A program made the translations under genes and the position numbers. Of a DNA stretch of 64,000 nt, positions 24,015-56,315 are shown in pieces. Position 1 is the stretch's first letter. Every line of letters begins with the position of its first letter. The DNA comes from Candidatus Gottesmanbacteria bacterium (GTDB lineage Bacteria; Patescibacteriota; Microgenomatia; UBA10105). The stretch is taken from NCBI GenBank assembly GCA_023245415.1, contig JAHFKJ010000001.1:32902-96901 (forward strand), written 5' to 3'. Below the pieces are notes generated by a model. It searched no databases, was not told the DNA's origin, and saw only the letters and a list, made by a program, of their open reading frames with translations.

Positions 24015-24023
24015 ATATGCGGA

Positions 24024-28476: not shown

Positions 28477-28540
28477 AAAATACTGAGCATATTCTACTTA
28501 AAATATTGTGGATAGGCCAGTATTATGATATCTTTGTCGC

Positions 28541-37355: not shown

Positions 37356-38933
37356 TTATGTTTTTACACCCATATACAATACTTTATGAGAAGGCGAATA
37401 AATTACAAAATTGGTCTTAACATCAAAAGGAAATTCTGCTGGTGGTCCAATGTATAAAGTATTCTGCTGATGTGATATTGAATTCCAATTCTGACCTGTA
37501 AAATCATACTTTCCAAAAGCATTGAATCCTATAAAAGAATTCCGTTTTTTTAGTTGATTTTTTAGCCACAGCGGATCCTTTTTATTATATAAAAGTACAT
37601 AAATATATGCTTGTTTTATATTCTGTGATATAATAATTTTGTCGACAGATGTTTCATATTTATTTGCTTCAACAGCTAATTCTTTAACGCCATACTCCCA
37701 AGAATCATAAAACCTGATCGGACTATTTATAAAATATTGATTAGAGAAATATATAAGATTTAAAGCAAATAATCCGCAAATTAAAGAATAAAGATAACGT
37801 AAGATAGGACGTCTATTTATCATTTTTAGGAAATAAAGTAGTCCGAGAGAAATTACAAGCTGAAGAACAGGTAATAGAAGTAAGATGCGTCCTGCATTGG
37901 GTGGACCCACAGTTAAGGCTCCTGGTAAAGGAGCGATAAGAATCCAGAGGAATATAAATGATTTAAGTGACCTTAATTTCCAAAGAGTGTACATCCCGAT
38001 TAATAAAAACGGAAATTCAATTACAAATAAAAGACCAATGTCCTGGACTTGAAAATAGCGCATAGTACTGGTGTCAAAGAATAAGTTATGCGGGTTAAAT
38101 TGATTTATGTAATTTAATGAAAACTTAAAGAAGATTTTAGGAATTGATAGAGATTTTTCTTCCTTTTCACGGACGAAAATATTTATACCTCCAAATCGAG
38201 TTTGAGCAAGGGGCTTAGAGAAAAAATCGAAGACGATAGGTAATGTAACAATAATAAATATTAGACAGCAAAAAATTAAATATAGAATTTTTTTATAAAA
38301 AAAATGCCTGCAATGATAAATAAGCAGTAATAGTAATATAGGAGACGTAAGTCTTGGAGCATGATATGCATAAAATGTACTCCCCATAATTAGAAAACTC
38401 ATAGAAACTGCAAAACGATTAGATTTTCTAATCCCTAATAAAAATGTCCACATTCCTAAAAATTGGAGCACTAACCCATAAATAGCATCATGGGCTATTC
38501 GTGAAAATTGAATATGCCATGGAGAAAACGCAATCAGGGTAGTACATAGGAGAGCAATTTTGTATGGATGTTTTGAAATAATTATATTGTTAGAATCGAA
38601 TAGCTCAGAAATGAATAAAAATATTATTGCAAGTGAAAGCATGCTAACGATTACTGATGGGAAACGTACTGTAAAATCATTCAAGCCAAGTAGTGCAATA
38701 GCAGGAACGGTTGAATAAAAAATGAGCGGACTTACATCAGCACGAAGTATTAAAGGCCACGTTTTTCCGTATTCATCGATGCCGGACTTAAGCAGACTAT
38801 AAGCGTTATATCCAACTCCAACTTCATCACCGTGGAGTGAAATCGGAATTTTTCCTAGTTGCCACAGATTCAAACATAATGATAACGCGGAAATGCCAAA
38901 GAAAAATAATAAAATCTTATTTTTGCGTCTCAT
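37356..38933 (-). CDS. GT-C glycosyltransferase, ArnT/PMT_2-like polytopic membrane protein
   Basis: 525 aa. First periplasmic loop 'SLHGDEVGVGYNAYSLLKSGIDEYG' matches the DE/DExxYA motif of ArnT/PMT. Immediately upstream of a DPM1-like GT2, as in the ArnC-ArnT pairing. Confidence 0.5.
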   Translation of the reverse strand: MRRKNKILLFFFGISALSLCLNLWQLGKIPISLHGDEVGVGYNAYSLLKSGIDEYGKTWPLILRADVSPLIFYSTVPAIALLGLNDFTVRFPSVIVSMLSLAIIFLFISELFDSNNIIISKHPYKIALLCTTLIAFSPWHIQFSRIAHDAIYGLVLQFLGMWTFLLGIRKSNRFAVSMSFLIMGSTFYAYHAPRLTSPILLLLLIYHCRHFFYKKILYLIFCCLIFIIVTLPIVFDFFSKPLAQTRFGGINIFVREKEEKSLSIPKIFFKFSLNYINQFNPHNLFFDTSTMRYFQVQDIGLLFVIEFPFLLIGMYTLWKLRSLKSFIFLWILIAPLPGALTVGPPNAGRILLLLPVLQLVISLGLLYFLKMINRRPILRYLYSLICGLFALNLIYFSNQYFINSPIRFYDSWEYGVKELAVEANKYETSVDKIIISQNIKQAYIYVLLYNKKDPLWLKNQLKKRNSFIGFNAFGKYDFTGQNWNSISHQQNTLYIGPPAEFPFDVKTNFVIYSPSHKVLYMGVKT

Positions 38934-39661
38934 GCATTTAGCCGTAATTTGAGAGCAGTAGATGAATAGGAAAGAAACATCTGGAAAAAATTCGATTTGC
39001 TGGTTCCATAAATACGATTTTTGTAAAATACCGGTGTTTCAACTATGGATACATTTTCCAAGCAACAATAATATATTAGTCGAATAAAATAATCTCCAAA
39101 GCCGTAAAAAATTTTTTGTGGTGTGAACTGATTTAAAACATTTTTCTTAATCGCAAAAAACCCACTTAAATTATCATGCACGTGATGCCCTAAAAGTATT
39201 CTTAAATATAGATTAAATACCAAACTAAATGCGTTACGGAGTTTATTTTCCATCCCGCCACCATTAATAAACCGTGATCCAATAATAAAAGAGTATTGAT
39301 TCATTAGCATAATAAATTTAAGAAGTACATTTGGGTCATGATTAAAATCGGTATCCATTATGATAAGCCACTTCCCTTTACTTTTAGAAATACCAAAAAA
39401 GATTGCGGATGCAAGTCCGCGTTGATTTTTTCGAACGTGTATTTTCACGAATTTTTTCGCAAAAAAAAAGTTGCGGGCATTTTTGGCAGTTTGATCAGGA
39501 CTGTTATCGTCAACCAATATAATTTCATGAGATTGTCTACTGGTTACGAGAATTTTATGTAATTCACAAATTAAACGTATAATGTTGCCTGCTTCATTAT
39601 AGGTAGGTAATATTACGGATATTTTTGGATTCATAAGAAAAAGTATTAGGGATAATAACAA
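38930..39661 (-). CDS. GT2 polyprenyl-phosphate sugar synthase (DPM1/ArnC-like)
   Basis: 'KISVILPTYNEAGNIIRLICEL...ILVDDNSPDQT', 'IIMDTDFNHDP' and 'IGSRF'. Confidence 0.7.
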   Translation of the reverse strand: MLLSLILFLMNPKISVILPTYNEAGNIIRLICELHKILVTSRQSHEIILVDDNSPDQTAKNARNFFFAKKFVKIHVRKNQRGLASAIFFGISKSKGKWLIIMDTDFNHDPNVLLKFIMLMNQYSFIIGSRFINGGGMENKLRNAFSLVFNLYLRILLGHHVHDNLSGFFAIKKNVLNQFTPQKIFYGFGDYFIRLIYYCCLENVSIVETPVFYKNRIYGTSKSNFFQMFLSYSSTALKLRLNA

Positions 39662-39692: not shown

Positions 39693-41447
39693 ATGAAAAT
39701 ATTTAATAAATTTAAGGTGATTCTTATTCTTGCTTCAATCTTTGTTGGAATTATATATTTATATCCTTATAGTTATTATAATTTACTCAAACACGAAGAT
39801 AGAGTGCTTTACCCTTTTTCGTTTGCTGAAACTTTATACGCAGCACAAGTTAAGGAAATAATAGACGGTAATTTCAGTGTAGGTGATCCTCAATTCTTCG
39901 AACATAAACAGGTAACTCCATCAGTTTTTCCGTATATCTGTGTGTTTTTGATCGCGACAGTGAGTTATATAACAGGGTCAATAGTTTGGGGATTTTTGGT
40001 GAGTGATTTCATTTTTCCGGTTATACTTTTCTTACTATTATATACATTCGGAATCTTACTAACTCATAATCGGTTATGTGCGTTGCTTGCGAGTTTCTCC
40101 ACGCTTTTTTTGTATCACCTTCTTGCCAAATTTCCTCCTATTTCAATAGAAGGAATACGCGAATTCTTGAAGATAGTTACATGGCAGCAGGTTAGTGGAC
40201 CACTGCCATTCTATCGCACGCCAAATCCACAAATAAGTTTTATTTTTTTAGCTTTATCATTATTTATACTCTATGGATTATGGTTAAAGCCTGATTGGAA
40301 AATAACATCAGTGCTAATAGTTGCAGCAAACTTATTATATTCAGTTTATTTTTATCACGTGACTTATTTTATTTTTATCACATTAATTCTTCTTTTTACT
40401 ACGTTATTTAAACGCGATAAGAAGCAGTTTATTTCGCTTTTTACACTTCTTTGCTCCCTTTGCATTACAGGAATCGCTTATCTGCAAATTTCCAAAATTT
40501 ATCCATATCAAACTCTACAAGTTACGGGTGGAAAATTTGAAATGCGTTATTTCGACTGGATATATAGTTTGCGTTATGGAATCTTTTTTATAATATTATT
40601 GTTTTTAACAAATGGCATTAACAACTCACAAAGAGTTTTTTCAGGTAGTTTAGTTTTAGCCGGATTAGGCGTCATGAACTTTCAAGTGTTGACTGGATGG
40701 ACCATACAGCCTGGGCATTGGCCGCAAACAACTGTTGAACCTGTTATTACATTTTTACTCTGTCTTTATATCGGGCGTTTACTAATTACGAAAATTTCGT
40801 CCTTCTCTATGTGTATATTAATACTATGTATTTGCATTTATGCAGTAATATGGCAAATACATTTTTCGCAACGTGCAGTGAAAGATTGGAGTATCCCTAG
40901 AGATTTAAATAATGTGCTAATTTGGTTAAATACCAATTCAACAACTCAAACTGTTGTGTTGGCTCTTGATATTGAAGTATCTGCTTATGTACCTGTCTTA
41001 ACTTCAGCGAACATTTTTTTACCCGTTGAAGAATATCATTATGCAACTGTCGATGAAATTTGGCAAAGAATTTTACTTGCTTATAAGATATATAAAGTAC
41101 CTAAATATTTTTTTAATCCAAGTGTTTTACCTTTGGTCACTTATTTTGAGTTAACATATAATTTAAATCAATACAAACATGAAGATTTTAGAGAATATGA
41201 TCAGCTAATCCGTCAGCGTATTAAAAATTGTTATCCGTCATTATGCGCTAGTCTTTATAGCTTGCCAATGAGAATTAAAGATTATTGGGTTGAACAATTC
41301 GCATTAAAAATAGATTTAGAAAAAAATCCATTTCGGTTAGACTATATAATTTATTCCCCTAATGATAAAAAGAAGCACGCGCTTTTTCCTACCGGGACAC
41401 TTGTCTATCGGTCCGGTGAATATCGAGTATTTGCCTATAAGAGATAA
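39693..41447 (+). CDS. Large polytopic membrane protein (584 aa), function unknown, possibly GT-C-like
   Basis: More than 10 hydrophobic segments plus a C-terminal soluble domain. No clear catalytic motif. Confidence 0.3.
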   Translation: MKIFNKFKVILILASIFVGIIYLYPYSYYNLLKHEDRVLYPFSFAETLYAAQVKEIIDGNFSVGDPQFFEHKQVTPSVFPYICVFLIATVSYITGSIVWGFLVSDFIFPVILFLLLYTFGILLTHNRLCALLASFSTLFLYHLLAKFPPISIEGIREFLKIVTWQQVSGPLPFYRTPNPQISFIFLALSLFILYGLWLKPDWKITSVLIVAANLLYSVYFYHVTYFIFITLILLFTTLFKRDKKQFISLFTLLCSLCITGIAYLQISKIYPYQTLQVTGGKFEMRYFDWIYSLRYGIFFIILLFLTNGINNSQRVFSGSLVLAGLGVMNFQVLTGWTIQPGHWPQTTVEPVITFLLCLYIGRLLITKISSFSMCILILCICIYAVIWQIHFSQRAVKDWSIPRDLNNVLIWLNTNSTTQTVVLALDIEVSAYVPVLTSANIFLPVEEYHYATVDEIWQRILLAYKIYKVPKYFFNPSVLPLVTYFELTYNLNQYKHEDFREYDQLIRQRIKNCYPSLCASLYSLPMRIKDYWVEQFALKIDLEKNPFRLDYIIYSPNDKKKHALFPTGTLVYRSGEYRVFAYKR

Positions 41448-42935
41448 TTAACAGTCTTTATAGATAAAAATTTGATTATCTCCAATTTGCACCGTTCTTT
41501 TAGCCTTAAGCTTCGCTTTTTCGATAACGAGTGGATTGATTTGAGGTACATGAATATGTATTAATACTACTGCGTTATCCAAATATCCTTTCAGGAATTG
41601 TTTCACAGCTTCTTCCTTCGTCCAATCTTCATTTTCTACAGCCGGTAGCATACTTTGGCCAAAATAGTAACGAGCCCTCCATGCATCTTCTGTACTAATG
41701 TATGTTTGACTTCCTTGGAAACAAGGCTTAACTATTTTTCCTACTTCTCTGATGCGATCGTTTTTAAAGGTCCAGTTGCGATATATTAGTGGATTTGGCG
41801 CACCCAATAACAGCGGTTTAGTGGAAATTAAATTAATAATAATTATAACTGACAAAAAAACCGATGTTAAGGGAAGGATTACTACAGTTTCTGCGGCGAT
41901 TAGAGCGACTGGCCCTAATATATTAAGATATACAGTACAACAGGGAATTATCGGAACTTCGATTAGTAATACTGCGATGAGCATTAACCACAAAAACAGG
42001 ATACTTTTTCTTTTATTAAAAATAAGAGCCGGTATTAAAAACGGCCACATGACAATAATTCCAGGTTGACCCAAGAAACGATCCCATTTTTCTCGTAAGA
42101 AATAATTTAACCCTTGTTTATATTGTCCAGTGACCTGTTGAGATCGGTTAATAGTGAAATAACTTCTATAATGGATAAAGCCTGCCCCTTTAGGGCTTTT
42201 GGGAAGAAAACTATAGCCGATATAAGGAACGTAATAAACTGATACGATAAGAATGAATAAAATACTGGTTCGAATAATCTCTCCTGATTGTAAAAATTTT
42301 CTTTTTTGAAAAATAAGTAAAAGTAATGATGGCAGAAATAATATAAAATCTATCGATATAAATAAACAAAATGTTAGAGTTGCGAAAAGTATGCTAAGTG
42401 ATCTCCTTGAAGGAAATTCATAAAAATACAGCACTCCTATACTAGCTAATAATCCGCCGGAAATATTTAAACCAAAAGTAATGGGTTGGCTAAACCACAC
42501 AATATAAGTAGAAATTGAAAAAAAACTTAAAAAAGCTAAGGCTACTTTTTTTCCACGAATCCTCTTGATACTGAAAAATCCTAATAGAAGCGCGCCGATT
42601 GAAACAGAGACGTAAATAAGTCTTGCTGTAAATTCGCGAGGTTGAAAAGGTACAGCAGGTAGAAGTATTAAAAATTCGACCGGCGGATGATTATGCTGGA
42701 GCAGCGGATAAAAAATATTCTGTAGAGCAACCCGTGGGTTTTTGATCAGTAATAAATCTGCTAAACCCCGGACCATTTGTACTGCTTTAGTCATGTGACC
42801 TGCCTCGTCTCCGGTAAAACTTGGTCTCCAAAATCCCCACATTCTAAGTAGTGTTCCAATTAATATTAGAAATACTACTACAGCAACATAGATCGAAGAA
42901 TACCCTTGTGGTATAGTACGTTTAATTATTTGCAT
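41448..42935 (-). CDS. Large polytopic membrane protein, GT-C-like
   Basis: 495 aa. First loop 'SFTGDEAGHMTKAVQM'. C-terminal soluble domain. Confidence 0.4.
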   Translation of the reverse strand: MQIIKRTIPQGYSSIYVAVVVFLILIGTLLRMWGFWRPSFTGDEAGHMTKAVQMVRGLADLLLIKNPRVALQNIFYPLLQHNHPPVEFLILLPAVPFQPREFTARLIYVSVSIGALLLGFFSIKRIRGKKVALAFLSFFSISTYIVWFSQPITFGLNISGGLLASIGVLYFYEFPSRRSLSILFATLTFCLFISIDFILFLPSLLLLIFQKRKFLQSGEIIRTSILFILIVSVYYVPYIGYSFLPKSPKGAGFIHYRSYFTINRSQQVTGQYKQGLNYFLREKWDRFLGQPGIIVMWPFLIPALIFNKRKSILFLWLMLIAVLLIEVPIIPCCTVYLNILGPVALIAAETVVILPLTSVFLSVIIIINLISTKPLLLGAPNPLIYRNWTFKNDRIREVGKIVKPCFQGSQTYISTEDAWRARYYFGQSMLPAVENEDWTKEEAVKQFLKGYLDNAVVLIHIHVPQINPLVIEKAKLKAKRTVQIGDNQIFIYKDC

Positions 42936-43010
42936 AGAAATTACGCCATTTTACGCTAAGCTTCATTAAATAAAAAGGTCAAATTCTTTTATATAAAATG
43001 AGTGCTTAAT

Positions 43011-44000
43011 ATGAAAAAGAAATCAATTTTAGTTACAGGCGGTGCAGGATTTATTGGCAGTCATTTAGCAGATGCATTAATTCATAAATTTAGAGTAATT
43101 GTCTTAGATAATTTTTCTTCTGGAAAACATGAAAACCTACGTGAATTTATTTCAAAAGGTGGAGAAGTATGTGTTGGTGATATATTAAATTATAAGAATG
43201 TGGAGAAATTAGTCTCTCAAGTGGATGTAATTATTCATTTGGCAGTTCAATGCGTCAGACTTTCTTTTAAAAATCCCCATTTCGTACACGAAACAAATAT
43301 CACCGGTACTCTTAATTTATTGGAGGCTGCCAGAAAAAAACGTCTAATGAGATTTCTTTATGTATCTTCATCAGAAGTTTATGGTAATTCTAAACAGAAA
43401 AGACTAAGGGAAGTTGACGTGACTAATCCTTCCACTATCTATGGTGCAAGTAAACTTGCGGGAGAATACTATTGTCGAGCGTATTTACAGTCATATAATC
43501 TACCTATAGTAATAGTGCGACCGTTTAATACATATGGTCCTAGATCGCATTTTGAAGGTGTATATGGGGAAGTAATACCCAAATTTTTTATACGACTCAT
43601 TAATAAAAAAAGGCCGATAATTTATGGTAATGGGTATCAAACCCGGGATTTTACGTATATTTCAGATACGGTAAATGGATTGATCTTAGCTCTTGATAAT
43701 ACTGAGGTTATAGGCGAGGTTATAAATATTGCCCACGGTGTCGAGGTGAGTATAAACGAGTTGGCAGAATTAATTAGCGGTATTACTCGAAAAAATAATC
43801 TCTTACCGATATACAGTCAGAATCGTCCGGCCGACTTACTGCACCTTAAAGCCAATATTCAAAAAGCTCGGAAGCTGCTAAATTTTAATCCGCAAGTCTC
43901 AATTAATAAGGGTTTACAAAAATATTATGATTGGCTTATGAGCTCGAAAATTGATTTTAATAATGCTTTTAAGCAAGACGAACAAGAAAATTGGAAATGA
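43011..44000 (+). CDS. NAD-dependent epimerase/dehydratase (SDR). The ORF is open from a GTG at 43002.
   Basis: 'ILVTGGAGFIGSHLADAL', 'YVSSSEVYG', 'YGASKLAGEYY', 'RPFNTYGPRS' and 'GNGYQTRDFTYISDTV'. Confidence 0.7.
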   Translation: MKKKSILVTGGAGFIGSHLADALIHKFRVIVLDNFSSGKHENLREFISKGGEVCVGDILNYKNVEKLVSQVDVIIHLAVQCVRLSFKNPHFVHETNITGTLNLLEAARKKRLMRFLYVSSSEVYGNSKQKRLREVDVTNPSTIYGASKLAGEYYCRAYLQSYNLPIVIVRPFNTYGPRSHFEGVYGEVIPKFFIRLINKKRPIIYGNGYQTRDFTYISDTVNGLILALDNTEVIGEVINIAHGVEVSINELAELISGITRKNNLLPIYSQNRPADLLHLKANIQKARKLLNFNPQVSINKGLQKYYDWLMSSKIDFNNAFKQDEQENWK

Positions 44001-45136
44001 AGATACCTTTAACTAAACCATTGTTTAATTTGGCGGAGATTAATGCCGTTAAAAAAGTTCTCGCATCAGGTTGGGTGACTCAAGGTCCAATTACTGCTAA
44101 GTTTGAAAGGAATTTGGAAAAATATATTAACGCCAAGCATGTTGTTGTCGTGTCAAATTGTACAAACGCATTGCATTTATGCCTGCTAATAGGGAGCGTC
44201 AAGCCAGGGGATGAAGTGATAGTTCCTTCACTCACCTATATTGCAACTATCAGCGCCATTCGATATGTAGGCGCAGTGCCTGTGTTTGCAGATATTGATT
44301 TGAAAACTTTTACATTGGATCCTCAAGCGACATCAAATAAAATTACCAAAAAAACAAAATTTATATTGCTAGTCCATCAGATTGGAATTTCTGCTGATTT
44401 AGATCCTTTAAGATCAATTGCACGCAAAAATAATCTTATACTGATAGAAGATGCTGCGCCTGCACTAGGTGCAACATACAAAGAGAAAATGGTTGGACAA
44501 AATGGTAAATTTGTCGCATTTAGCTTTCATCCGCGTAAAAGTATAACTACAGGTGAAGGCGGAGCTATCGCAACCGAGGACGATGAAACTTATTCAAGAT
44601 TGAAAATTCTTCGTTCACACGGATCTTCAATTTCTGACTATTATCGCCATAAAGGAAAAGCACTCAATTTCGAAAAATTCGAAGTTCTTGGGTTCAATTA
44701 TCGATTATCAGACATTAATGCTGCTATAGGAATAGAGCAACTTAAAAAATTGCCAGGATGGATCATATTAAGAAGAAGATTGGCAAAAAATTACCAAAAA
44801 GAATTTAAAAGGATGTCAAATCTAATCCCGCCGTTCGAGCCGAATTACACTCGACACACATTTCAATCCTATCAAATAAGAGTAAGGGGGATTTCATCAG
44901 AGCGCAGAGATGAATTAATACAACGTCTATTACGAAAAAACATTGCAACAAGGAGAGGTGTAATGGCATCTCATCTGGAACCGTTGTATATCAAGTATCC
45001 GTCACAAGATCTTATAAATACAGAGATTGCCTACAGGGAATCATTATTATTGCCAATGTATCCAGATATGACACAACTTGAACAAGAGTATGTAGTAGAT
45101 TCTGTGAAAAAAGTTTTTGCCCAGATGCATCTTTAA
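43991..45136 (+). CDS. DegT/DnrJ/EryC1-family sugar aminotransferase
   Basis: 'DAAPALGATYKEKMVGQNGKFVAFSFHPRKSITTGEGGAI' with lysine present. N-terminal 'VLASGWVTQGPITAKFE'. Confidence 0.75.
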   Translation: MEMKIPLTKPLFNLAEINAVKKVLASGWVTQGPITAKFERNLEKYINAKHVVVVSNCTNALHLCLLIGSVKPGDEVIVPSLTYIATISAIRYVGAVPVFADIDLKTFTLDPQATSNKITKKTKFILLVHQIGISADLDPLRSIARKNNLILIEDAAPALGATYKEKMVGQNGKFVAFSFHPRKSITTGEGGAIATEDDETYSRLKILRSHGSSISDYYRHKGKALNFEKFEVLGFNYRLSDINAAIGIEQLKKLPGWIILRRRLAKNYQKEFKRMSNLIPPFEPNYTRHTFQSYQIRVRGISSERRDELIQRLLRKNIATRRGVMASHLEPLYIKYPSQDLINTEIAYRESLLLPMYPDMTQLEQEYVVDSVKKVFAQMHL

Positions 45137-46076
45137 TATGAGATCAAAACTAAAGGTTGCAGTTATTGTACCTTTACTAAACGAATCACAAAATATTTCT
45201 CGTTATTATTACGAATTAAAAAAAACCACCACTGAACTTAAAAAGTACAAATTTTCCTACTTATTTGTAGATGATGGTTCCTCAGATGATTCATGGGATA
45301 AAATAATTTATTTGACACAACATGATAAACAGGTATCTGCAATTAAGTTTTCACGAAATTTTGGTAGTCATTCCGCCTGGTATGCTGGAATTAAAGCTGT
45401 GAAAGAAGTTGATGCCTGTATATTAACGACGATTGATTTGCAGGATCCACTAATTTTAATTCCTGTAATGTTAGAGAAATTTCAAAACGGAGCTAAATTA
45501 GTTTGCGCTGTTCGTAGAGACAGGAAAGATATATTGCTGACTAAAATTCTATCTCAATGTTACTATTTCTTAGTTAAAAAATTTGCGCTACCAAACATGC
45601 CATCAGGAGGTGTTGATTTTTGCCTTATTGCTAAAAAAATTATTCAAGACCTTATAGAAATGGGTGAAAAAAACACATCGCTGATTGGGCTTATTTTATG
45701 GTTAGGCTACTCATATGCGGAAGTTTTTTATGTCAGAAATAAAAGAAGATTCGGAAAATCCAAATGGACAATTTTCAAGAAAGTAAAATTATTTATTGAT
45801 ACATTCGTAGGATTTTCGTTTATGCCAATTCGACTAGTTTCATATTTAGGTTTTCTATTTTCTACTTTAGGTTTTTTGTATGCAATTATCATTTTCGTTC
45901 GTAGAATTATATATGGAGCACCAATTGAAGGCTGGTCTTCGTTAATGCTTGTAGTGTTGATACTTTCTGGCGTGCAACTGATCACATTAGGAATTGTGGC
46001 AGAATATTTATGGAGAACGCTGGATGCTTCAAGACAAAGACCATTGTACGTAATAGAAAAACAAGTAAATCTCTAA
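45117..46076 (+). CDS. GT2 polyprenyl-phosphate (amino)sugar synthase with two C-terminal TM helices (GtrB/ArnC-like)
   Basis: 'VAVIVPLLNESQNI...FVDDGSSDDS', 'TTIDLQDP', then C-terminal hydrophobic helices 'LVSYLGFLFSTLGFLYAIIIF' and 'LMLVVLILSGVQLITLGIV', typical of GtrB/ArnC. Confidence 0.7.
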   Translation: MPRCIFNMRSKLKVAVIVPLLNESQNISRYYYELKKTTTELKKYKFSYLFVDDGSSDDSWDKIIYLTQHDKQVSAIKFSRNFGSHSAWYAGIKAVKEVDACILTTIDLQDPLILIPVMLEKFQNGAKLVCAVRRDRKDILLTKILSQCYYFLVKKFALPNMPSGGVDFCLIAKKIIQDLIEMGEKNTSLIGLILWLGYSYAEVFYVRNKRRFGKSKWTIFKKVKLFIDTFVGFSFMPIRLVSYLGFLFSTLGFLYAIIIFVRRIIYGAPIEGWSSLMLVVLILSGVQLITLGIVAEYLWRTLDASRQRPLYVIEKQVNL

Positions 46077-46079
46077 CAA

Positions 46080-46598
46080 TCACATTCTCTTATTCAATAC
46101 TTTTGCGGGTATGCCAACTGCAACTGAAAATTCAGGGATATTCTTTGTGACTACGGCACCAGCACCTATTTGAGAATATTTACCAATGGTAACTCCCGGT
46201 AATAGTATTGCACCTATACCGATATCACAACCTGTTTTAATATAAATTGGTGCGTACTTTTGAGATCTTTCGATTATGGGAACAGTGCGTTTATGGACCT
46301 CATGGGATAATGTTAAAAGTTTCACAAATGGCCCAATGCCTACAGAATCTTCGATTGTAATTCCACCACCGCTATGTAAAAAACAATTTTGGCCAATCCA
46401 AACATTGTTGCCAATCGACATCGTATTTCTAAAATAGCCTTTTAGAATAGTTCGGTGTCCAATATAAACATTATCGCCAATTTCAATATTTTCCGGATGA
46501 AAAATTAAAACTTCTGGTTCAAATATGACATTGTCGCCCAAGTGTTTAAAGCTCTTTCTTGTAAATCTACCATCGCCGTGAGAGGTGAATAATTTCAT
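46080..46598 (-). CDS. Hexapeptide-repeat (left-handed beta-helix) acetyltransferase. The ORF is open to 46643, but the start at MKLF is more plausible.
   Basis: Repeated [LIV]G-x4 hexapeptides: 'IGDNVYIGHRTIL', 'IGNNVWIGQNCFL', 'IEDSVGIGPFV', 'IGIGAILLPGVTIGKYSQIGAGAVV'. Confidence 0.6.
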   Translation of the reverse strand: MKLFTSHGDGRFTRKSFKHLGDNVIFEPEVLIFHPENIEIGDNVYIGHRTILKGYFRNTMSIGNNVWIGQNCFLHSGGGITIEDSVGIGPFVKLLTLSHEVHKRTVPIIERSQKYAPIYIKTGCDIGIGAILLPGVTIGKYSQIGAGAVVTKNIPEFSVAVGIPAKVLNKRM

Positions 46599-46641
46599 GT
46601 TTACATTGTAGCAAATATGAAATCTGGCTATAATTACCCCC

Positions 46642-47664
46642 ATGCCGGTAAAACTTGGTCTTATAGGTCTTGGATATTGGGGGCCTAATTTATTGCGGAA
46701 CTTTCAGAATACACATTATGCAAGTGTTATAGCTTGTGCTGATTTAGATAGTCAAAAAATAAAAAAAATTGCCCAGAAATATCCGAACATTTCTTTTTAT
46801 AAGAACTATAGAAAATTACTTTTAGAAGACCTGAATGCTGTCATAATAGCTACTCCTCCAAGTTCGCATTATGAAATTATCAAAGCCGCGCTGCAAAGCA
46901 ATAAACACGTCTTTGTAGAAAAACCAGTAACTACGAATTATTCTCAAGCGCTGGAAATTGCTAAGATTGCTCAAGCAAAACGTAAAATTCTTATGGTAGA
47001 TCATATATTTGTCTATTCAAATGCTGTTGAAAAAATTAAAGGATTAATCGACAAAAAAAAACTTGGCGATCTATACTATTTCGATTCAACTCGTGTAAAT
47101 TTAGGTCTACTTCAATCGAATACCAGCGTGTTATGGGACTTGGCAAGCCACGATGTTTCAATTTTAGAATATTTGATCAATGACAGGCCCCTAAGTATTC
47201 ACTGCGTTGGATCTTCTCATACCTTAAGCCGACAAGAAGATATTGCTTTCGTAACCATAAAATACCCAGGTAATTTTATTGCGCACATAAACGTTAATTG
47301 GTTGGCTCCATCAAAAATTCGTCGGATTGTTGTCGCCGGAAGCAAAAAAATGGTAGTTTACGATGAAGCAAGTGTAGAGGAAAAAGTAAAAATTATCGAA
47401 AAGGGTATTAGTGAACTTACGGGTCACCACCGACATGAGGTTTTAACCAATTATCGAATAGGCGATAGCATCTCTCCTTATTTACCGGCTAGAGAGACAC
47501 TTGTAGACGTATGCGCACATTTTATCAATTGCATACTAAAAAACAGACGGCCAATAACAAATGGATTCTCAGGCGCGCGAGTCGTTAAAATTTTGGAGAA
47601 AGCTGAATTCTCTTTAATTTCCGGGATGACATATAAATTTTCAACGGCAGATTTCAAAATTTGA
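46642..47664 (+). CDS. Gfo/Idh/MocA-family sugar oxidoreductase (paralog of 14192..15139)
   Basis: 'LGLIGLGYWGPNLL', 'VFVEKPVTTNYSQALEI' and 'WDLASHDVSILEYL'. Confidence 0.65.
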   Translation: MPVKLGLIGLGYWGPNLLRNFQNTHYASVIACADLDSQKIKKIAQKYPNISFYKNYRKLLLEDLNAVIIATPPSSHYEIIKAALQSNKHVFVEKPVTTNYSQALEIAKIAQAKRKILMVDHIFVYSNAVEKIKGLIDKKKLGDLYYFDSTRVNLGLLQSNTSVLWDLASHDVSILEYLINDRPLSIHCVGSSHTLSRQEDIAFVTIKYPGNFIAHINVNWLAPSKIRRIVVAGSKKMVVYDEASVEEKVKIIEKGISELTGHHRHEVLTNYRIGDSISPYLPARETLVDVCAHFINCILKNRRPITNGFSGARVVKILEKAEFSLISGMTYKFSTADFKI

Positions 47665-48232
47665 AAAGATACGAATTCCAATGCTGGTGATAAAGGTAAA
47701 ACTCTCCGATTAGTTTTCCATTCAACTTCTGATAAAACAGATTAGCCCGGAGATTTTTTTGGTACACGTTTACAGAAAAACACTTAATACCTTTTTGTTT
47801 AAAATCACGAAACAACTGTTCGATCAATCTATTCCCAACTTCGTTTCTCCGCCATTTTTCACTGACACCAATAAATAATAATTCTGACTCACATTTATGC
47901 GGTTGTCGAGAAGAATAGAATAGAGTATCTAGTAAATTGAATATTATCAAAGGATTTACTATCAGCTTGAATGTTAGCCATAAAACTAACTCTTTGAAAT
48001 TTTTTCTAAGAATTCTTATAGTCATAGTGGAGCTGTCACTTATCCCAATTACAAAGCCAGTCAATTCAGATTTATAAAAAATTCCCCAGGCTGAAATGTC
48101 ATCGAGTTGTAACATGGATTTATAAAGAGAGTATAAAAACTTGTAACCCAGACTCGCCAAAAAATCTTCGGGTAAACATTTTAGATGAAGACGTGCACAA
48201 GATGAAGCGTTTATCGCAGTGAGCTTTTGCAT
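47654..48232 (-). CDS. GNAT-family N-acetyltransferase (possible PseH-type or other aminosugar N-acetyltransferase)
   Basis: 'LLFIGVSEKWRRNEVGNRLIEQLFRDFKQKGIKCFSV' acetyl-CoA binding motif A region. About 190 aa. Last gene of an aminotransferase/epimerase operon. Confidence 0.5.
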   Translation of the reverse strand: MQKLTAINASSCARLHLKCLPEDFLASLGYKFLYSLYKSMLQLDDISAWGIFYKSELTGFVIGISDSSTMTIRILRKNFKELVLWLTFKLIVNPLIIFNLLDTLFYSSRQPHKCESELLFIGVSEKWRRNEVGNRLIEQLFRDFKQKGIKCFSVNVYQKNLRANLFYQKLNGKLIGEFYLYHQHWNSYLFKF

Positions 48233-48233
48233 T

Positions 48234-49331
48234 TTACAAATATGAACATAGTGTACTTGAAATGTAAGAAATTTCCTTGTTTGTTAGTTGGGTATGAGTC
48301 GGCAGGGTAATGCCGGTACGAGAAAGTTTTTCCGATACAGGATACGCATTCTGATTTCTGTACATCGGAAAATGCGAGATTGGATAAAAAACGGGTCGGC
48401 TTTCAATTCCTTTAGCAGATAGTTTTAAAATGATCTGGTTGCGCTTTTGAGCAGTGACATTATTTATTAATAGCGTGAAAAGCCAATTGACGCCTTGTGT
48501 ATCATGAGTGTTGTTGGGAGGAAATATGATATTTTTTTGATACCGCAGTTTTTGCCTATAAAGGGTGTCAATATTTTTCCGTATCTTTAGGAAGGTTTCG
48601 ATTTTTTTAAGCTGAGCAAGACCAATTGCTGCTTGTATATTGGTCATACGGTAATTATACCCGACAACCGGGTGCCAATATTTTTTAAATTTTGACATCC
48701 CGTGGTTTTTTAGGAGTCTGATCTTTTCTGCTAGTTTCAAGTTATTTGTTGTTAACATACCGCCTTCACCGGTGGTAATAATTTTATTGCCGTAAAAAGA
48801 AAAACAACCGATATCTCCGATAGATCCCACGAGTTTCTGATTAACCTGAGCTCCATGCGCTTCGGCAGCATCTTCAATAATGAATAGGTTATATTTTTTT
48901 GCAATTTTTGTAATTCGATTCATTTGCGCTGGAAATCCATATAAGTGGACGGGAATAACTGCTTTAGTTTTTCCCGTAATGGATTTTTCAATTTCTGTTG
49001 GATCAATATTCCAAGTTGCTTCATTTACATCGACGAGAACAGGTTTAGCTCCAATATAAGAAACGGCATTTGCAGTAGAGATAAACGTAAAATTTGGGAC
49101 TATTACTTCGTCATCCGGCTTTATGTTTATAGCCATCAACGCCAGATGCAAAGCCACAGTACCGTTACTGCAACTAATGGCATATTTAACCCCGCACCAC
49201 TTGGCGAAATTTTCTTCAAATTTTGAAATAAACTCTCCAGTTGACGAAATCCACGAACTTTTTAGGCAGGTTACGACATTCTGCAATTCTTCTCTCTTTA
49301 ATTCGGGGTATGCGATTGGGATTCTATTCAT
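48234..49331 (-). CDS. DegT/DnrJ/EryC1-family sugar aminotransferase
   Basis: 'DAAEAHGAQVNQKLVGSIGDIGCFSFYGNKIITTGEGGML' and N-terminal 'SSWISSTGEFISKFEENFAKWCGVKYAIS'. Confidence 0.75.
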   Translation of the reverse strand: MNRIPIAYPELKREELQNVVTCLKSSWISSTGEFISKFEENFAKWCGVKYAISCSNGTVALHLALMAINIKPDDEVIVPNFTFISTANAVSYIGAKPVLVDVNEATWNIDPTEIEKSITGKTKAVIPVHLYGFPAQMNRITKIAKKYNLFIIEDAAEAHGAQVNQKLVGSIGDIGCFSFYGNKIITTGEGGMLTTNNLKLAEKIRLLKNHGMSKFKKYWHPVVGYNYRMTNIQAAIGLAQLKKIETFLKIRKNIDTLYRQKLRYQKNIIFPPNNTHDTQGVNWLFTLLINNVTAQKRNQIILKLSAKGIESRPVFYPISHFPMYRNQNAYPVSEKLSRTGITLPTHTQLTNKEISYISSTLCSYL

Positions 49332-50293
49332 TCTTGTTGTAGTCGGGTTGTTTTATACCAATCGATAAATTGTTTGATTCCTGAGTCAAAATTTATTTTA
49401 GGTTGCCACTTTAACGTTTTATAAGCCTTCGAATTGTTGGCATAGGTAATTATAGCTTCTTCGGAGCGTGATGATTTTATTTGCTTTTTAATGATTTTCC
49501 CGGTGTATTTTTCTATATGCATAATCATATCCTTAAGTTTTATCGGATGAGAATTGCCAATATTGAGTATTTCAAATTGAGATTTTTGATAAAGACATAC
49601 ACACAAAGCGTTCAAAACATCATCTATATAAGTATAGTCTCGAGCAGAATTACCGTCACCAAATTGGTCTATCTTTTTACCGTGAAAAGCCGCTTTTGTG
49701 AAAATGTATGGAGCTAAATCAGGCCGGCTTTTGGGACCGTATACTGAAAAAAGTCTTAATATTATTAAAGGGATCCGATTCGTGTTGTACAGTTCTTGTA
49801 AAACATACTCGCCCTGCTGTTTCGTTTTTGCGTATGGTGACTGTGGAGTCAAAATTTGCTTTTCTTCAAACGGAACCAAAGAGCTGTTTCCATAAACGCT
49901 TGAAGAAGAAGTAAATATAAACTGTTCAACATTCGCATGTTTTGATATTTGGTATATATTTTTCACGCCTACTACATTGTTTTCAAAATACTTTTTAGTT
50001 TGACGTAGAGATTGACGAACTCCGGTGAGAGCAGCTAAATGAAATACTGTTTTAGGCAAATATTTAGAAAAAATGTTCGAAATTTTAGATTTATCTAATA
50101 TGTCAACTTTATGAAAATAGAAATTTGGATATTCAAGTAGTAGATTTATGTTTTCCTGCTTATATTTTTGAGGATAGTTACTTGCGAAGTTATCTATACC
50201 GATTATTGTAAAATTGCGCCTCAATAATTTAGAAGCCAGCGATGAACCTATAAAACCAGCGCATCCTGTAATACAGATAAGTGAGCGTCTCAT
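49328..50293 (-). CDS. NAD-dependent epimerase (SDR), UDP-glucuronate/UDP-GlcNAc 4-epimerase-like
   Basis: 'CITGCAGFIGSSLASKLL', 'FTSSSSVYG', 'YAKTKQQGE', 'RLFSVYGPKSRPDLAPYIF' and 'GDGNSARDYTYIDDV'. Confidence 0.6.
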   Translation of the reverse strand: MRRSLICITGCAGFIGSSLASKLLRRNFTIIGIDNFASNYPQKYKQENINLLLEYPNFYFHKVDILDKSKISNIFSKYLPKTVFHLAALTGVRQSLRQTKKYFENNVVGVKNIYQISKHANVEQFIFTSSSSVYGNSSLVPFEEKQILTPQSPYAKTKQQGEYVLQELYNTNRIPLIILRLFSVYGPKSRPDLAPYIFTKAAFHGKKIDQFGDGNSARDYTYIDDVLNALCVCLYQKSQFEILNIGNSHPIKLKDMIMHIEKYTGKIIKKQIKSSRSEEAIITYANNSKAYKTLKWQPKINFDSGIKQFIDWYKTTRLQQE

Positions 50294-51483
50294 GCGCGAT
50301 AATAGCGAGTTATTTTCAGTACTGATTTAATAACGTCATCTACATCCTGCTTCGTCATTGCCGGTGATAAAGGTAGTGATAAAGTTCTTTCACCGATAAA
50401 TTCACTGTTGGGATAGTCACCGGGTTTAAATCCGAAAGTTGTTTGATAATAGCGGTGTAGGTGTAGAGCCGTGAAATGGATTCCGGTTCCTATACCTTCT
50501 AGACGTAAACCTTCTATGAATTGACTTCGATTAATTTTGAGCTTTTCCAAATTAAGGAGTATCGCGTACAAGTGTCGGGCATGAGTTAAATCTTTCGGAG
50601 TTGGGGCAGGAGTAATAATCTCTGGAAGATCTTTAAATGCTTCATCATACATCTGCCAATACGTATTTCTTACAATTAAATTTTTGGATACATTTTTCAA
50701 TTGATGTAGGCCAAATGAAGCGACTAAATCCATCATGTTGTATTTATAACCAGGATAGAGCGTTTCATAAGGCTGAAAACCGCTGCTTGAATAGCGTTTC
50801 CAGGCATCTTTGGAGATTCCATGCAGACTTCTGGTGCGGGCTTCTTCCGCCCATTGTTGATGATTCGTAGTGAGCATACCGCCTTCACCAGTCATGATAT
50901 TTTTGGTCACATAAAATGAGAATGCAGTAAAGTCAGTGATGGTTCCGATTTTGTTACCTTTGTAAACAGCTTCAGCTGCATGAGCTGCGTCATCTACGGT
51001 AAAGAGGTGATATTCATTGGCGAGTTTTTTAATTCTGTCATATTCACAAGGTCTACCATGAAGATCTACTGTTATTATTCCTTTAGTATTTGACGAAATT
51101 TTTCTCTCAATTTGCAATGGATCGATATTCCAGGTTTCCAGATCTATATCTGCAAATACTGGTTTTGCCCGGTGATGAACTATAACATTTGCAGTTGAGG
51201 GAAAAGTGAGGGGAGTTGTGATGACTTCATCGTTTTCGTGTACACCTAACACGTCCAAAGCTAAATGCAAACCAGCGGTACAAGAATTCAAGGCAATCGC
51301 ATATCGTGCACCGATATATTTTCGAAATTCTTCTTCAAATTGCTTAGTCTTGGGACCGGTACCTAACCAGCCGCTTTTTATGGTTGAGATAACTTCTTTG
51401 ATTTCTTGTACGGTGATTTTCGGTTTTCCAAAGACTAAGAAATTTTTCCTAACTGGTTTTCCACCCTCTAATGCGGGTTTCAT
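50290..51483 (-). CDS. DegT-family sugar aminotransferase, ArnB/WecE-like
   Basis: 'DDAAHAAEAVYKGNKIGTITDFTAFSFYVTKNIMTGEGGML'. C-terminal 'GIGTGIHFTALHLHRYYQTTFGF...LSLPLSPAMT' resembles ArnB. Confidence 0.75.
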   Translation of the reverse strand: MKPALEGGKPVRKNFLVFGKPKITVQEIKEVISTIKSGWLGTGPKTKQFEEEFRKYIGARYAIALNSCTAGLHLALDVLGVHENDEVITTPLTFPSTANVIVHHRAKPVFADIDLETWNIDPLQIERKISSNTKGIITVDLHGRPCEYDRIKKLANEYHLFTVDDAAHAAEAVYKGNKIGTITDFTAFSFYVTKNIMTGEGGMLTTNHQQWAEEARTRSLHGISKDAWKRYSSSGFQPYETLYPGYKYNMMDLVASFGLHQLKNVSKNLIVRNTYWQMYDEAFKDLPEIITPAPTPKDLTHARHLYAILLNLEKLKINRSQFIEGLRLEGIGTGIHFTALHLHRYYQTTFGFKPGDYPNSEFIGERTLSLPLSPAMTKQDVDDVIKSVLKITRYYRA

Positions 51484-52797: not shown

Positions 52798-54369
52798 ATG
52801 AAAAAAATAAAAATCTTTATTATCTTTACACTTTGTGTAAAGCAATTGGTTTGGGCGTCTTATATTCCTCCGTGGCAGTTTCCGGATGAACAGGCTCACT
52901 TTGCACAAGTACAGAATTTCGCACAGCGGGGTTTGACAGCTTTTTCGGGGCCAAATACTTCACAGGAAATCTACGAATCAGAGAAACTTTTAGGAACTGT
53001 CAGAGATGGATTTGGTAATAACAGTTTTACATATCATCCCGAGTACAAATTAGCCTATTCAGATGGAAAAGATGGATTGAATGAAGATTTGATTAGAAAT
53101 TTTCCGCTGAGAATGCAACAAAAGTACGTAATTTTTGAAGCGACTGTTTATCCACCATTTTATTACACTCTTTTAGTTCCATTTTACAATTTAGGTAGAC
53201 AGAGCGATTTACTAACAAGAATTTTTTGGGTTCGCCTGGGAAATATCCCGATTTTTTTAGGAATGATTTTTTTAGCAAATAGAATTGGAAAAGTACTTTT
53301 TAAATCTTCACAGTTGGTATGGACATTGACTTTAATAGTAAGTTTTCATCCCATGTTCTCTTTTGTAAGTGCCGGGACGACAAGTGATAACATATTTACA
53401 CTTCTAGTTACATTAACTCTCTATGTATCACTGCAAACACTACGGAATGGTTTACGGCCCAGATATATTCTGGGGATGATAGTGGTATTAATATTAGGTA
53501 TTTATTCAAAGCCTCAAGGAAGACTTGTAGGACTTATATTTTTATATCCTTTAATTAATAATTTATTAAATAAAAGCCGGAAATTCCAGAAATCAAACTG
53601 GGTAATAATAAGCGTATTATTAGTAGCGATTTTTGGATTTATGATTTCAAATATTTTCTCTGGTAGACAGATGTTGCCAGAAATACCAACACTAAATGAC
53701 TTTATCAATCATGATTCTATTTCTATTCAAAGCCATTTTCTATGGACATTTTGGCATACATATCATGAAATTTTACCGTGGTATTGGGGAGTCTATAGGT
53801 GGCTTAGTTTAACTTATCCCCGGCCTATACACCGGATAATTAATTGGACAGTTCTATTAGCTGGTTTTGGAGTGATGATCACGTTAGGGAAAAGTATAAG
53901 AAATAAACAAACTCTCGTTTTGAGATCAAACTTGTTTTTTTTAATTTATGCGTCTTTAATATATTTTTTGAGCATTACATTTTACGATTTTATTTTTTTC
54001 AAAACTCATGGTTTTTCTTTTGGAGTGCAAGGTAGGTATTTTTTTCCAGTCATTGTTGCGCATATGGCACTTCTTCTTGTTGGTTTCGTCAGCATAGCTG
54101 AGTTATTGAAAATGTTGTTAAGAAATTTAAATATTAAAGTATTAGGCTTGTTTATGATAATTCTGCACGTATACGCGCAGTGGTATGTCGTCAGATCATA
54201 TTATGATGCCTCGTCACTTAAAATATTTTTTAACCAAGCGAGTCAATACAAACCCTACTTTTTAAAAAGTCCTTTTTTGGAATTGATCGCAATTACCTAC
54301 GGGATGTGTTTGTTAATATTAGTATGGTACTATTTGAAACGCGTGCACGAGCCGTATGAAAAAGCGTAG
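52798..54369 (+). CDS. Large polytopic membrane protein, GT-C-like (ArnT/PMT-like)
   Basis: 523 aa. First loop 'PWQFPDEQAHFAQVQNFAQRG'. Followed directly by a DPM1-like GT2. Confidence 0.4.
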   Translation: MKKIKIFIIFTLCVKQLVWASYIPPWQFPDEQAHFAQVQNFAQRGLTAFSGPNTSQEIYESEKLLGTVRDGFGNNSFTYHPEYKLAYSDGKDGLNEDLIRNFPLRMQQKYVIFEATVYPPFYYTLLVPFYNLGRQSDLLTRIFWVRLGNIPIFLGMIFLANRIGKVLFKSSQLVWTLTLIVSFHPMFSFVSAGTTSDNIFTLLVTLTLYVSLQTLRNGLRPRYILGMIVVLILGIYSKPQGRLVGLIFLYPLINNLLNKSRKFQKSNWVIISVLLVAIFGFMISNIFSGRQMLPEIPTLNDFINHDSISIQSHFLWTFWHTYHEILPWYWGVYRWLSLTYPRPIHRIINWTVLLAGFGVMITLGKSIRNKQTLVLRSNLFFLIYASLIYFLSITFYDFIFFKTHGFSFGVQGRYFFPVIVAHMALLLVGFVSIAELLKMLLRNLNIKVLGLFMIILHVYAQWYVVRSYYDASSLKIFFNQASQYKPYFLKSPFLELIAITYGMCLLILVWYYLKRVHEPYEKA

Positions 54370-55749: not shown

Positions 55750-56315
55750 TTCTTTCCCTTCTGCGTCATTTAATGTTGCCGCTTAGGCAAATTAACGACT
55801 TTATTCCCGATAGCGGTTTAAATTATGAACTAGGGTCGGGATATGGAGTCATCAGTACGTATTTAGCTAATTCTCATAGTCAAAGAAGTGTTATCGCAGT
55901 GGATATCGATTCGCAAAAGATCAATCTAGCTCATAAAAAAAACATTAACAAAAATCTTGATTTTGTGGTAGCAGACATACATAAATTTAAACTGGAACTG
56001 TGCCATGGCGTTGTGTTGTCTGACTTTTTACACCATCTTGCCTATGCTACTCATGAGGATGTTATAAAAAAAATTTATTCAAGTTTGGTTAGGGGAGGCG
56101 TATTAGTGATTAAAGAAATCGATGATAATGACGGACTACGTAAATGGTTAAGTCGGTTTTGGGATATGCTACTTTATCCTAAGGACAGGATTTATTACCG
56201 TTCAAAAGCTGAATGGAGTAGTTTACTCAGAAAATACGGATTTACGATATCAATTATGAGAACTGTTTGGTGGTTTCCCGGATCCAGCTACTTATTTATA
56301 TGCAAAAAAAATTAA
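55746..56315 (+). CDS. Class I SAM-dependent methyltransferase. Start chosen at the ATGA overlap; the ORF is open from 55722.
   Basis: 'YELGSGYGVISTYLAN' motif I and 'GGVLVIKE' post-II region. Confidence 0.55.
   Translation: MILSLLRHLMLPLRQINDFIPDSGLNYELGSGYGVISTYLANSHSQRSVIAVDIDSQKINLAHKKNINKNLDFVVADIHKFKLELCHGVVLSDFLHHLAYATHEDVIKKIYSSLVRGGVLVIKEIDDNDGLRKWLSRFWDMLLYPKDRIYYRSKAEWSSLLRKYGFTISIMRTVWWFPGSSYLFICKKN

Follow-up and report, generated by a model that had tools for sequence, protein, structure and literature searches.

A conserved amino-sugar cassette, probably serving glycosylation outside the cell through polyprenyl phosphate, in reduced form in a Candidatus Gottesmanbacteria glycan island

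In the Arn pathway (PmrHFIJKLM), which places L-Ara4N on lipid A, a short-chain dehydrogenase/reductase (SDR) enzyme generates a 4-keto sugar nucleotide, amination at C4 by a DegT-family enzyme and N-acylation of the amine follow, a GT2 glycosyltransferase with two transmembrane (TM) helices loads the sugar onto polyprenyl phosphate, and a GT-C enzyme transfers it outside. A GtrB-type polyprenyl-phosphate (Pren-P) glycosyltransferase and a GT-C transferase also operate together in the three-component systems GtrA/GtrB/GtrC, CsbB/GtcA/YfhO and GacI/GacL. Protein O-glycosylation in Streptococcus mutans uses PgfS, PgfE, PgfM1 and PgfM2, a set with one GT2, a sugar enzyme from the SDR family and a pair of GT-C proteins acting outside (PMC12041528). 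Two further groups supply modified nucleotide sugars. The WbpB/WbpE/WbpD (WlbA/C/B) and GnnA/GnnB routes, which lead to 3-amino and 3-acetamido sugars, follow a three-step logic of Gfo-type oxidoreductase, aminotransferase and acetyltransferase, and in LegB/LegC/LegH and PglF/PglE/PglD a 4,6-dehydratase, a C4 aminotransferase and a left-handed beta-helix (LbH, hexapeptide) N-acetyltransferase yield 2,4-diacetamido-2,4,6-trideoxyhexoses. We compared these systems with a locus at 39.7-47.7 kb of a 64,000-nucleotide stretch of Candidatus Gottesmanbacteria DNA (hereafter the window), which a first-pass annotation had read as an Arn-like module accompanied by WbpB- and WbpD-like enzymes.

The locus is probably a reduced and rearranged version of a conserved cassette for extracytoplasmic glycosylation, in which an N-acetylated amino sugar would be carried on polyprenyl monophosphate. 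Three neighbouring genes share the plus strand. SDR1, an extended SDR, occupies 43002..44000 (likely ATG at 43011; Pfam Epimerase, E = 2e-62). DegT1, a DegT-family pyridoxal phosphate aminotransferase of C4 type, occupies 43991/43997..45136 (Pfam DegT_DnrJ_EryC1, 1e-108), and the membrane-anchored glycosyltransferase, here called GT2, occupies 45117..46076 (likely ATG at 45138, 312 aa; Pfam Glycos_transf_2, 6e-15). These genes overlap or abut, with DegT1 overlapping the SDR1 stop codon, an arrangement compatible with an operon. The LbH acetyltransferase gene lies on the minus strand (46080..46643, likely ATG at 46598, 172 aa; Pfam Hexapep, 5e-15). It is convergent with GT2, the stops being 3 bp apart, and divergent from the plus-strand gene for a Gfo/Idh/MocA oxidoreductase (Gfo; 46642..47664; Pfam GFO_IDH_MocA, 9e-27). 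Two genes for polytopic proteins complete the locus, one of 584 aa on the plus strand (39693..41447) and one of 495 aa on the minus strand (41448..42935), the latter divergent from SDR1 across a gap of ~70 bp. The five genes named by the first-pass annotation are all present where it placed them, with Pfam E-values from 1e-108 to 6e-15. Its description of the LbH gene as downstream fails in the transcriptional sense, since that gene is on the minus strand.

The cassette is best seen by comparison across phyla. We searched 80 genome loci anchored on GT2 with the window proteins and counted associations over 82 GT2-anchored loci. Within 4 kb of GT2, 62 of the 82 have a DegT gene and 51 have an LbH gene, while Gfo is found within 7 kb in 26 and an SDR with the catalytic glutamate (Glu) motif of SDR1, described below, within 5 kb in 25. 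In Nitrospirota, Opitutaceae, Verrucomicrobiaceae and uncultured relatives of low GC content, one strand carries the order Gfo-LbH-DegTa-SDR-DegTb-LbH-GT2, with two aminotransferases. A Nitrospirae operon (L007) represents the full form, with two polytopic proteins, Gfo, LbH-1, DegTa, an SDR reading SSSEVYG, DegTb, LbH-2 and GT2. In three low-GC metagenomic relatives (L087-L089) a PMT_2 GT-C gene stands upstream of the same seven genes, and fusion of LbH-1 and DegTa into one protein of 529-536 aa in two of these three loci (L088 3919-5529, L089 4795-6384) links the steps that those two enzymes perform. GT-C genes flank the cassette in diderm lineages too, of PMT_2 type in Nitrospirae and of YfhO type in Opitutaceae, and a PMT_2 gene adjoins it in L010. 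The tie between GT2 and amino-sugar genes that the first-pass annotation had drawn is therefore borne out, as DegT, LbH, SDR and Gfo are linked with GT2 across phyla.

The two aminotransferases of the full cassette differ in type. DegTa is clearly a C3-type enzyme by sequence, matching QdtB at 376, DesV at 324 and WbpE at 250 bits versus 203 for perosamine synthase, whereas DegT1 of the window is the orthologue of the Nitrospirae DegTb (45% identity, 338 bits) and is C4-like. Because of these two assignments, the full cassette reads as a first trio (Gfo, LbH-1, DegTa), a second trio (SDR, DegTb, LbH-2) and a loading enzyme, GT2. The window LbH enzyme belongs with the second trio, since a protein of the same type fills the slot directly upstream of GT2 in L024 and also, by tblastn, in L019 and L068. 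By tblastn, the window Gfo and that of the Nitrospirae cassette share 46% identity. LbH-1 and DegTa are present neither in the window locus nor in L002, one of its two closest relatives, and are present in the other, L004. Both relatives (GT2 identity 54-56%) keep GT-C, GT-C, SDR, DegT, GT2, LbH on the minus strand and Gfo on the plus strand; the two GT-C positions and the position of Gfo beside the module are thus retained, and the 495-aa homologues there are 49-50% identical. The window accordingly carries a reduced, rearranged form in which the second trio is joined by GT2, a pair of GT-C genes and a Gfo left as an orphan, and all five genes of the first-pass annotation belong to one conserved cassette. 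Their division into two independent pathways, one Arn-like and one Wbp-like, is rejected on their co-linearity in a single cassette across phyla.

GT2 has the architecture of a polyprenyl-phosphate glycosyltransferase. In enzymes of the GtrB/ArnC/DPMS type, an N-terminal GT-A domain is followed by juxtamembrane helices, by a pair of C-terminal TM helices and by a hairpin at the C terminus (bioRxiv 10.1101/2025.01.29.634835). The best Protein Data Bank (PDB) match of GT2 is Synechocystis GtrB 5ekp, with which it aligns over its full length (query 6-314 versus chain 20-327, E = 9e-52); ArnC also aligns full-length (E = 1e-33). Hydropathy places two C-terminal TM helices at about residues 243-294, in agreement with the GtrB/ArnC-like topology that had been proposed for this protein. 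By curated NCBIfam models GT2 is an orthologue of neither PgfS nor ArnC, because it misses both cut-offs: PgfS (NF047588), still its top curated family, scores 185.7 bits against 500, and ArnC (NF007986) 146.3 against 529. In the published signature DADLQ(D/N/H), the leading Asp has been proposed as catalytic base of ArnC, and metal is bound by the second Asp together with the Gln. The motif TIDLQD of GT2 aligns with DADLQD of GtrB, such that the metal-binding Asp and Gln are kept and the first Asp is replaced by Thr. All 82 related GT2 proteins carry Ala, Ser, Thr, Pro or Met at this position, and the subfamily has the further signatures SRNFGS[HY]xA and EYLWR. The equivalent of GtrB D157 is conserved. 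The donor sugar cannot be read from the sequence of GT2; that it is the amino sugar of the cassette is inferred.

SDR1 is predicted from sequence to be a 4-keto-forming nucleotide-sugar enzyme of 4,6-dehydratase or decarboxylase type. Its catalytic motif is SSSEVYG with YxxxK, versus SSSAVYG, SSAAVYG or STSSVYG in the top-scoring PDB epimerases. A Glu after the catalytic Ser is typical of 4,6-dehydratases and UDP-GlcA decarboxylases. In an alignment of 25 sequences, made up of SDR1 and 24 cassette orthologues, S122, S124, E125, Y147 and K151 are at least 95% conserved. Among curated models SDR1 scores highest with the 4,6-dehydratases LegB (204.9 bits, cut-off 475) and RmlB (193.3, cut-off 365). 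GalE (TIGR01179) reaches 145.9 against 262.3, the ArnA C-terminal decarboxylase (NF005998) 81.9 against 777 and UDP-4-keto-pentose synthase 72 bits, while human UXS matches at 158 bits. The Glu motif and the sub-threshold GalE score rule out a plain GalE, an identity that would have undone the Arn analogy of the first-pass annotation. As to whether C6 is deoxygenated, lost or kept, a 6-deoxy route is the most parsimonious, because LegB and RmlB lead the curated models, a 6-dehydrogenase turned up neither in the window nor, save a weak 26% match in L052, in the other loci searched, and the dehydrogenase near the cassette in L002 and L004 is of Ugd type. The Glu-type SDRs of the window (43011-44000), L007 (7412-8407) and L089 (6374-7360) share a C-terminal tail ending in ...(E/F)NW that is not found in the non-Glu SDRs of the same slot in L087, L088, L023 and L052.

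The remaining enzymes are also assigned by family. In PDB searches DegT1 matches perosamine synthetase at 226 bits and ArnB at 219, then the C3 enzymes QdtB at 187 and WbpE at 140, and so groups by sequence with the C4 aminotransferases; the ArnB model (NF008658) gives 285.9 bits, short of its cut-off of 631. The LbH enzyme, which matches SACOL2570 (3e-20) and WlbB 3mqg (3e-15) among both O- and N-acetyltransferases, is predicted to be the N-acetyltransferase for the new amino group. For Gfo, a predicted nucleotide-sugar 3-dehydrogenase, the top curated model is the archaeal UDP-GlcNAc 3-dehydrogenase (9e-49, 167 bits, cut-off 450), and a PDB search returned GnnA 7bvj (2e-12) with WbpB/WlbA outside the best 60. 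The best window match to DegTa is DegT2 (48234-49331; 368 and 373 bits for perosamine synthase and LegC, respectively); being C4-type, it is rejected as the missing C3 partner of Gfo. DegTb as the partner of Gfo, a pairing that L023 seems to hint at, is not favoured, because DegTa falls in the QdtB/WbpE clade and DegT1 is C4-like.

Both upstream polytopic proteins have GT-C folds as judged from structural models. Neither matches a Pfam family, PMT_2 included, and homologues are few: 14 for the 584-aa protein, one of them named Candidatus Microgenomates, and 9 for the 495-aa protein, one with a PMT_2 annotation. AlphaFold (AF2) models built from these small alignments have a predicted local distance difference test score (pLDDT) of 80 and a predicted template modelling score (pTM) of 0.84 for the 584-aa protein, and 81 and 0.82 for the 495-aa protein. 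Foldseek matches for both are exclusively GT-C glycosyltransferases. Top PDB matches of the 584-aa model are STT3/OST, AftA, PglB, DPY19 and ArnT (E = 8e-7 to 6e-4), and it is a candidate outward-facing transferase for a lipid-linked sugar. The 495-aa model matches ArnT 5f15 best (E = 2.9e-6, TM scores 0.64/0.59), followed by STT3, ALG12 and Pmt4, and the protein has GDE, within FTGDEA, after TM1, where ArnT-like GT-C enzymes are marked by an acidic motif in the first extracytoplasmic loop; these features show a GT-C fold and no more. PDB searches with the 495-aa sequence, singly and as a profile, returned nothing, so that its fold is seen only by prediction and Foldseek, and pairwise phmmer among the polytopic proteins of the window detected no similarity. 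The association with GT-C proteins that the first-pass annotation drew is supported by these two folds directly upstream, one with ArnT as its best structural match.

A pathway can be proposed from these assignments, in which folds and architectures are modelled or aligned and the individual steps are inferred. SDR1 would oxidise a nucleotide sugar at C4, most simply UDP-GlcNAc or a 3-modified derivative, and its conserved Glu would drive 4,6-dehydration, or decarboxylation if the substrate were a uronic acid. DegT1, translationally coupled to SDR1, would transaminate the 4-keto group, and the LbH enzyme would N-acetylate the new amine, in formal parallel to N-formylation by ArnA before ArnC. 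GT2 would then load the sugar onto polyprenyl phosphate at the cytoplasmic face, and after flipping across the membrane the two adjacent GT-C proteins would transfer it to an acceptor outside. In the full cassette, a Gfo 3-dehydrogenase, a QdtB/WbpE-type aminotransferase and the additional LbH enzyme, LbH-1, would add a 3-acetamido group to give a 2,3,4-tri-N-acyl sugar. The window product is more likely a 2,4-di-N-acetyl, bacillosamine-like sugar, because only Gfo is kept of the Gfo/DegTa/LbH-1 trio, unless another aminotransferase substitutes. Sugars would on this scheme be delivered singly as lipid-phosphate monosaccharides, as the first-pass annotation had suggested. Lipid A is an unlikely acceptor, since the host is probably a Microgenomates-like bacterium of the candidate phyla radiation (CPR), as the low GC content and the Candidatus Microgenomates homologue of the 584-aa protein suggest.

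Set against the described systems, the cassette resembles Arn in its logic, and by sequence none of its genes is an Arn orthologue. The shared order of chemistry runs from SDR through DegT and GT2 to GT-C, GT2 aligns with ArnC over its full length and the 495-aa neighbour is closest in structure to ArnT, and to this extent the Arn analogy stands. It does not extend to the curated thresholds, of which the ArnA, ArnB and ArnC scores (82/777, 286/631 and 146/529 bits/cut-off) all fall short. Acylation in Arn is carried out by a formyltransferase domain and in the cassette by a hexapeptide acetyltransferase; no formyltransferase is adjacent to the module, the sole one in the window lying 22 kb away at 20627-21154. 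No ArnD-like deacylase or ArnE/F flippase was found among window open reading frames (ORFs) of at least 100 aa. The cassette moreover adds a Gfo and, where complete, one more aminotransferase and one more acetyltransferase. The interpretation as first proposed is in sum partly supported.

The other systems are each alike in one part. Pgf shares with the locus the combination of a GT2 (PgfS being the top curated family for ours), an SDR-family sugar enzyme and two GT-C proteins, but there a simple epimerase supplies GalNAc, aminotransferase, acetyltransferase and Gfo are missing, and PgfM1 and PgfM2 are YfhO-type, whereas the window GT-C proteins match no Pfam family. The three-component systems have the same pairing of a GtrB-type enzyme with a GT-C transferase; the cassette differs in having no GtrA-like flippase, in the GT2 subfamily's use of residues such as Thr, Ser or Ala for the first Asp of DADLQD, and in its built-in pathway of nucleotide-sugar modification. 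In full cassettes the adjacent and sometimes fused Gfo, QdtB/WbpE-clade aminotransferase and LbH enzyme reproduce the three steps of WbpB/WbpE/WbpD and GnnA/GnnB. The Wbp-like logic assigned to Gfo and LbH is not upheld as a separate route, the genes being part of the same cassette, nor in the window, where Gfo, a C3 DegT and LbH do not occur together: DegT1 and DegT2 are both C4-like, a WbpE-type aminotransferase and its acetyltransferase are absent, and Gfo is nearer the archaeal and GnnA type than WbpB. Neither the window nor the loci searched yielded a UDP-GlcNAc 6-dehydrogenase. The Leg and Pgl routes share the order of 4,6-dehydratase, C4 aminotransferase and LbH N-acetyltransferase, and LegB is the best SDR1 model, but SDR1 scores 205 against a LegB cut-off of 475, and the known routes feed a phosphoglycosyltransferase or nonulosonate synthase rather than a GtrB-type GT2. 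By the tests applied to its sequences, the cassette is a member of none of the Arn, PgfS, GalE and Wbp families.

The alternative that survives best, though we consider it unlikely, is that the chemistry is truly of Arn type. SDR1 would then be a UXS/ArnA-like UDP-uronic acid decarboxylase, DegT1 would be ArnB-like, and the product would be a 4-amino-pentose, N-acetylated and loaded as by ArnC, with full cassettes making a 2,3-diacetamido-Ara4N derivative. The Ser-Ser-Glu motif, which UXS and ArnA share, the match to human UXS and the rank of ArnB as second-best PDB family for DegT1 would all fit, and in L002 and L004 the cassette has a UDP-glucose 6-dehydrogenase 6-7 kb away. In addition, the sole natural 2,3,4-tri-N-acetyl sugar found in our literature search is a pentose, 2,3,4-triacetamido-2,3,4-trideoxy-L-arabinose from the O-antigen of Psychrobacter cryohalolentis; searches for tri-amino hexoses, and for literature on PDB entries 8VR2, 8VR3 and 8VR6, gave nothing usable. 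SDR1 nevertheless prefers LegB and RmlB over ArnA and UDP-4-keto-pentose synthase, and Gfo is nearer UDP-GlcNAc 3-dehydrogenases than WbpB. A sugar 6-dehydrogenase was found neither in the window nor, save for a weak 26% match in L052, within 10 kb of the cassette at the other GT2-anchored loci that were searched, and the L002/L004 enzyme is of Ugd type rather than a UDP-GlcNAc dehydrogenase. A route through UDP-GlcNAcA is unsupported for this same reason. The Ugd-type UDP-glucose 6-dehydrogenase of these relatives is accompanied by a 350-aa SDR (L002 16545-18928, L004 16781-19182), and the dehydrogenase is unmatched in the window by tblastn.

We give less credence again to an incidental adjacency, in which the sugar-modifying enzymes feed only cytoplasmic glycosyltransferases or the nonulosonic-acid pathway and GT2 separately makes Pren-P-Glc or Pren-P-HexNAc. 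The NeuB, CMP-transferase, PseB-like enzyme and further DegT and SDR genes of the window need similar intermediates, and the donor of GT2 is not legible. Against this, GT2 occurs on the same strand as DegT, LbH, SDR and Gfo in unrelated phyla that have none of the rest of the island, and the distinctive GT2 motif shared by 82 of 82 subfamily members goes together with a nearby DegT gene in the majority of loci counted above. Least probable is an oligosaccharide route, begun by GT2 on polyprenyl monophosphate in the way that archaeal AglK and AglJ begin one on dolichyl phosphate, with the chain extended by island GT4 and GT2 enzymes and transferred en bloc by a GT-C protein in place of a single sugar: the many soluble GT4 and GT2 genes, a Wzx-like flippase, the oligosaccharyltransferases STT3 and PglB as best fold matches of the 584-aa protein and the likeness of the predicted di-N-acetyl sugar to bacillosamine, the reducing-end sugar of bacterial N-glycans, would suit it, but in other phyla the conserved cassette has no additional Leloir glycosyltransferases, the 584-aa protein lacks a WWDxG motif, and its similar Foldseek E-values for STT3, AftA, DPY19 and ArnT indicate a GT-C fold and nothing more specific.

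Several observations weigh against a cassette that acts as proposed here. By total score, 4-epimerases are the top PDB matches of SDR1, and O-acetyltransferases are the top-scoring matches of the LbH enzyme. In the GT2 subfamily the leading Asp of DADLQD, a residue proposed as catalytic base in ArnC, is replaced. With neither a C3 aminotransferase nor a second acetyltransferase in the window, Gfo is unexplained there. No cassette gene reaches any curated equivalog cut-off, those for Arn, PgfS and UDP-GlcNAc 3-dehydrogenase included. In L087, L088, L023 and L052 DegTb is kept, yet the SDR slot next to it holds another type of SDR that lacks the Glu (SSxSVYG, 29-36% identity), which leaves the coupling of SDR to DegTb unproven. 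A scan of window ORFs of 100 aa or more likewise found no flippase or deacylase families.

The locus is embedded in a dense glycan island. The window (~33% GC, with no tRNA) encodes eight or more probable GT-C proteins, numerous glycosyltransferases of the GT4 and GT2 families, five DegT proteins and a nonulosonate branch. Immediately beyond Gfo, four minus-strand genes encode a GNAT protein by family assignment (47654-48232), the perosamine-synthase/LegC-like DegT2 (48234-49331), an epimerase-type SDR with the motif SSSSVYG (SDR2, 49328-50293) and DegT3, also assigned by family (50290-51483). These genes (47654..51483) may help the cassette or form a separate amino-sugar or nonulosonate branch, and orthologues of DegT2 and SDR2 are kept in L002 and L004. 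A nonulosonic-acid branch, pseudaminic- or legionaminic-like, extends over 18013-29527, with a HisF-like cyclase (18013-18798), a glutamine amidotransferase (20035-20643), the short formyltransferase (20627-21154), NeuB (21175-22227), a CMP-sugar cytidylyltransferase (22242-22970) and a PseB-like dehydratase (28541-29527). Its HisH/HisF-like pair hints at a modification of acetamidino type. Two paralogous proteins resembling NDP-sugar C-methyltransferases, with a Methyltransf_13 zinc finger and Methyltransf_14, are encoded at 11770-13011 and 25640-26884, and a GT2-methyltransferase fusion at 24024-25643.

Other parts of the island recall elements of the cassette. A second SDR-Gfo pair (SDR 13134-14195, SSSEIYG; Gfo 14192-15139) adjoins an Alg9/GT22-like GT-C gene on the minus strand (15123-16946) and a DegT gene (16793-17986), the last two ORFs overlapping by ~150 bp, and 13134-17986 may form a second oxidoreductase-aminotransferase-GT-C unit. 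Three pairs of a GT-C-like protein (PMT_2 or DUF2142) and a short GT2 of ~240-260 aa occur at 37356-39661, 52798-55081 and 56267-58656, with the short GT2s at 38930-39661, 54356-55081 and 57871-58656. These pairs may point to several Pren-P-sugar/GT-C systems operating side by side. A further GT2 (709-1392) precedes a small DUF2304 membrane protein of 120 aa (1399-1761), and no other small membrane protein was noticed that might act as flippase-type partner to a GT2.

Outside the window, large F5/8 type C (discoidin) proteins of 870-912 aa are encoded right after GT2 in L087 (9956-12670), L088 (9998-15483) and L089 (9896-12511), and more PMT genes follow there. Such proteins are possible acceptors or glycan-binding surface proteins; no large discoidin-domain protein was seen in the window. 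Our searches of the accessible literature turned up neither a description of the cassette nor papers on CPR glycosylation with GT-C enzymes. A bolder and more tentative proposal is that the full cassette and its GT-C enzymes constitute an undescribed cross-phylum system that makes a 2,3,4-triamino (tri-N-acyl) sugar on polyprenyl monophosphate for glycosylation outside the cell, with the window as its reduced di-N-acyl version and the discoidin proteins as candidate acceptors.

The known polyprenyl-monophosphate sugar donors of GT-C enzymes are few, namely Glc, Man, GlcNAc, GalNAc/GalN, Ara4N, GalA and arabinofuranose. A conserved cassette with a multi-step amino-sugar pathway coupled to a dedicated GtrB-type enzyme would represent a new donor class. 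The full and reduced cassettes, the Glu and non-Glu SDRs and the LbH-DegT fusions are natural variants through which the pathway could be dissected, and the cassette would offer a testable handle on the targets of the many GT-C proteins in CPR bacteria, Nitrospirota and Verrucomicrobiota.

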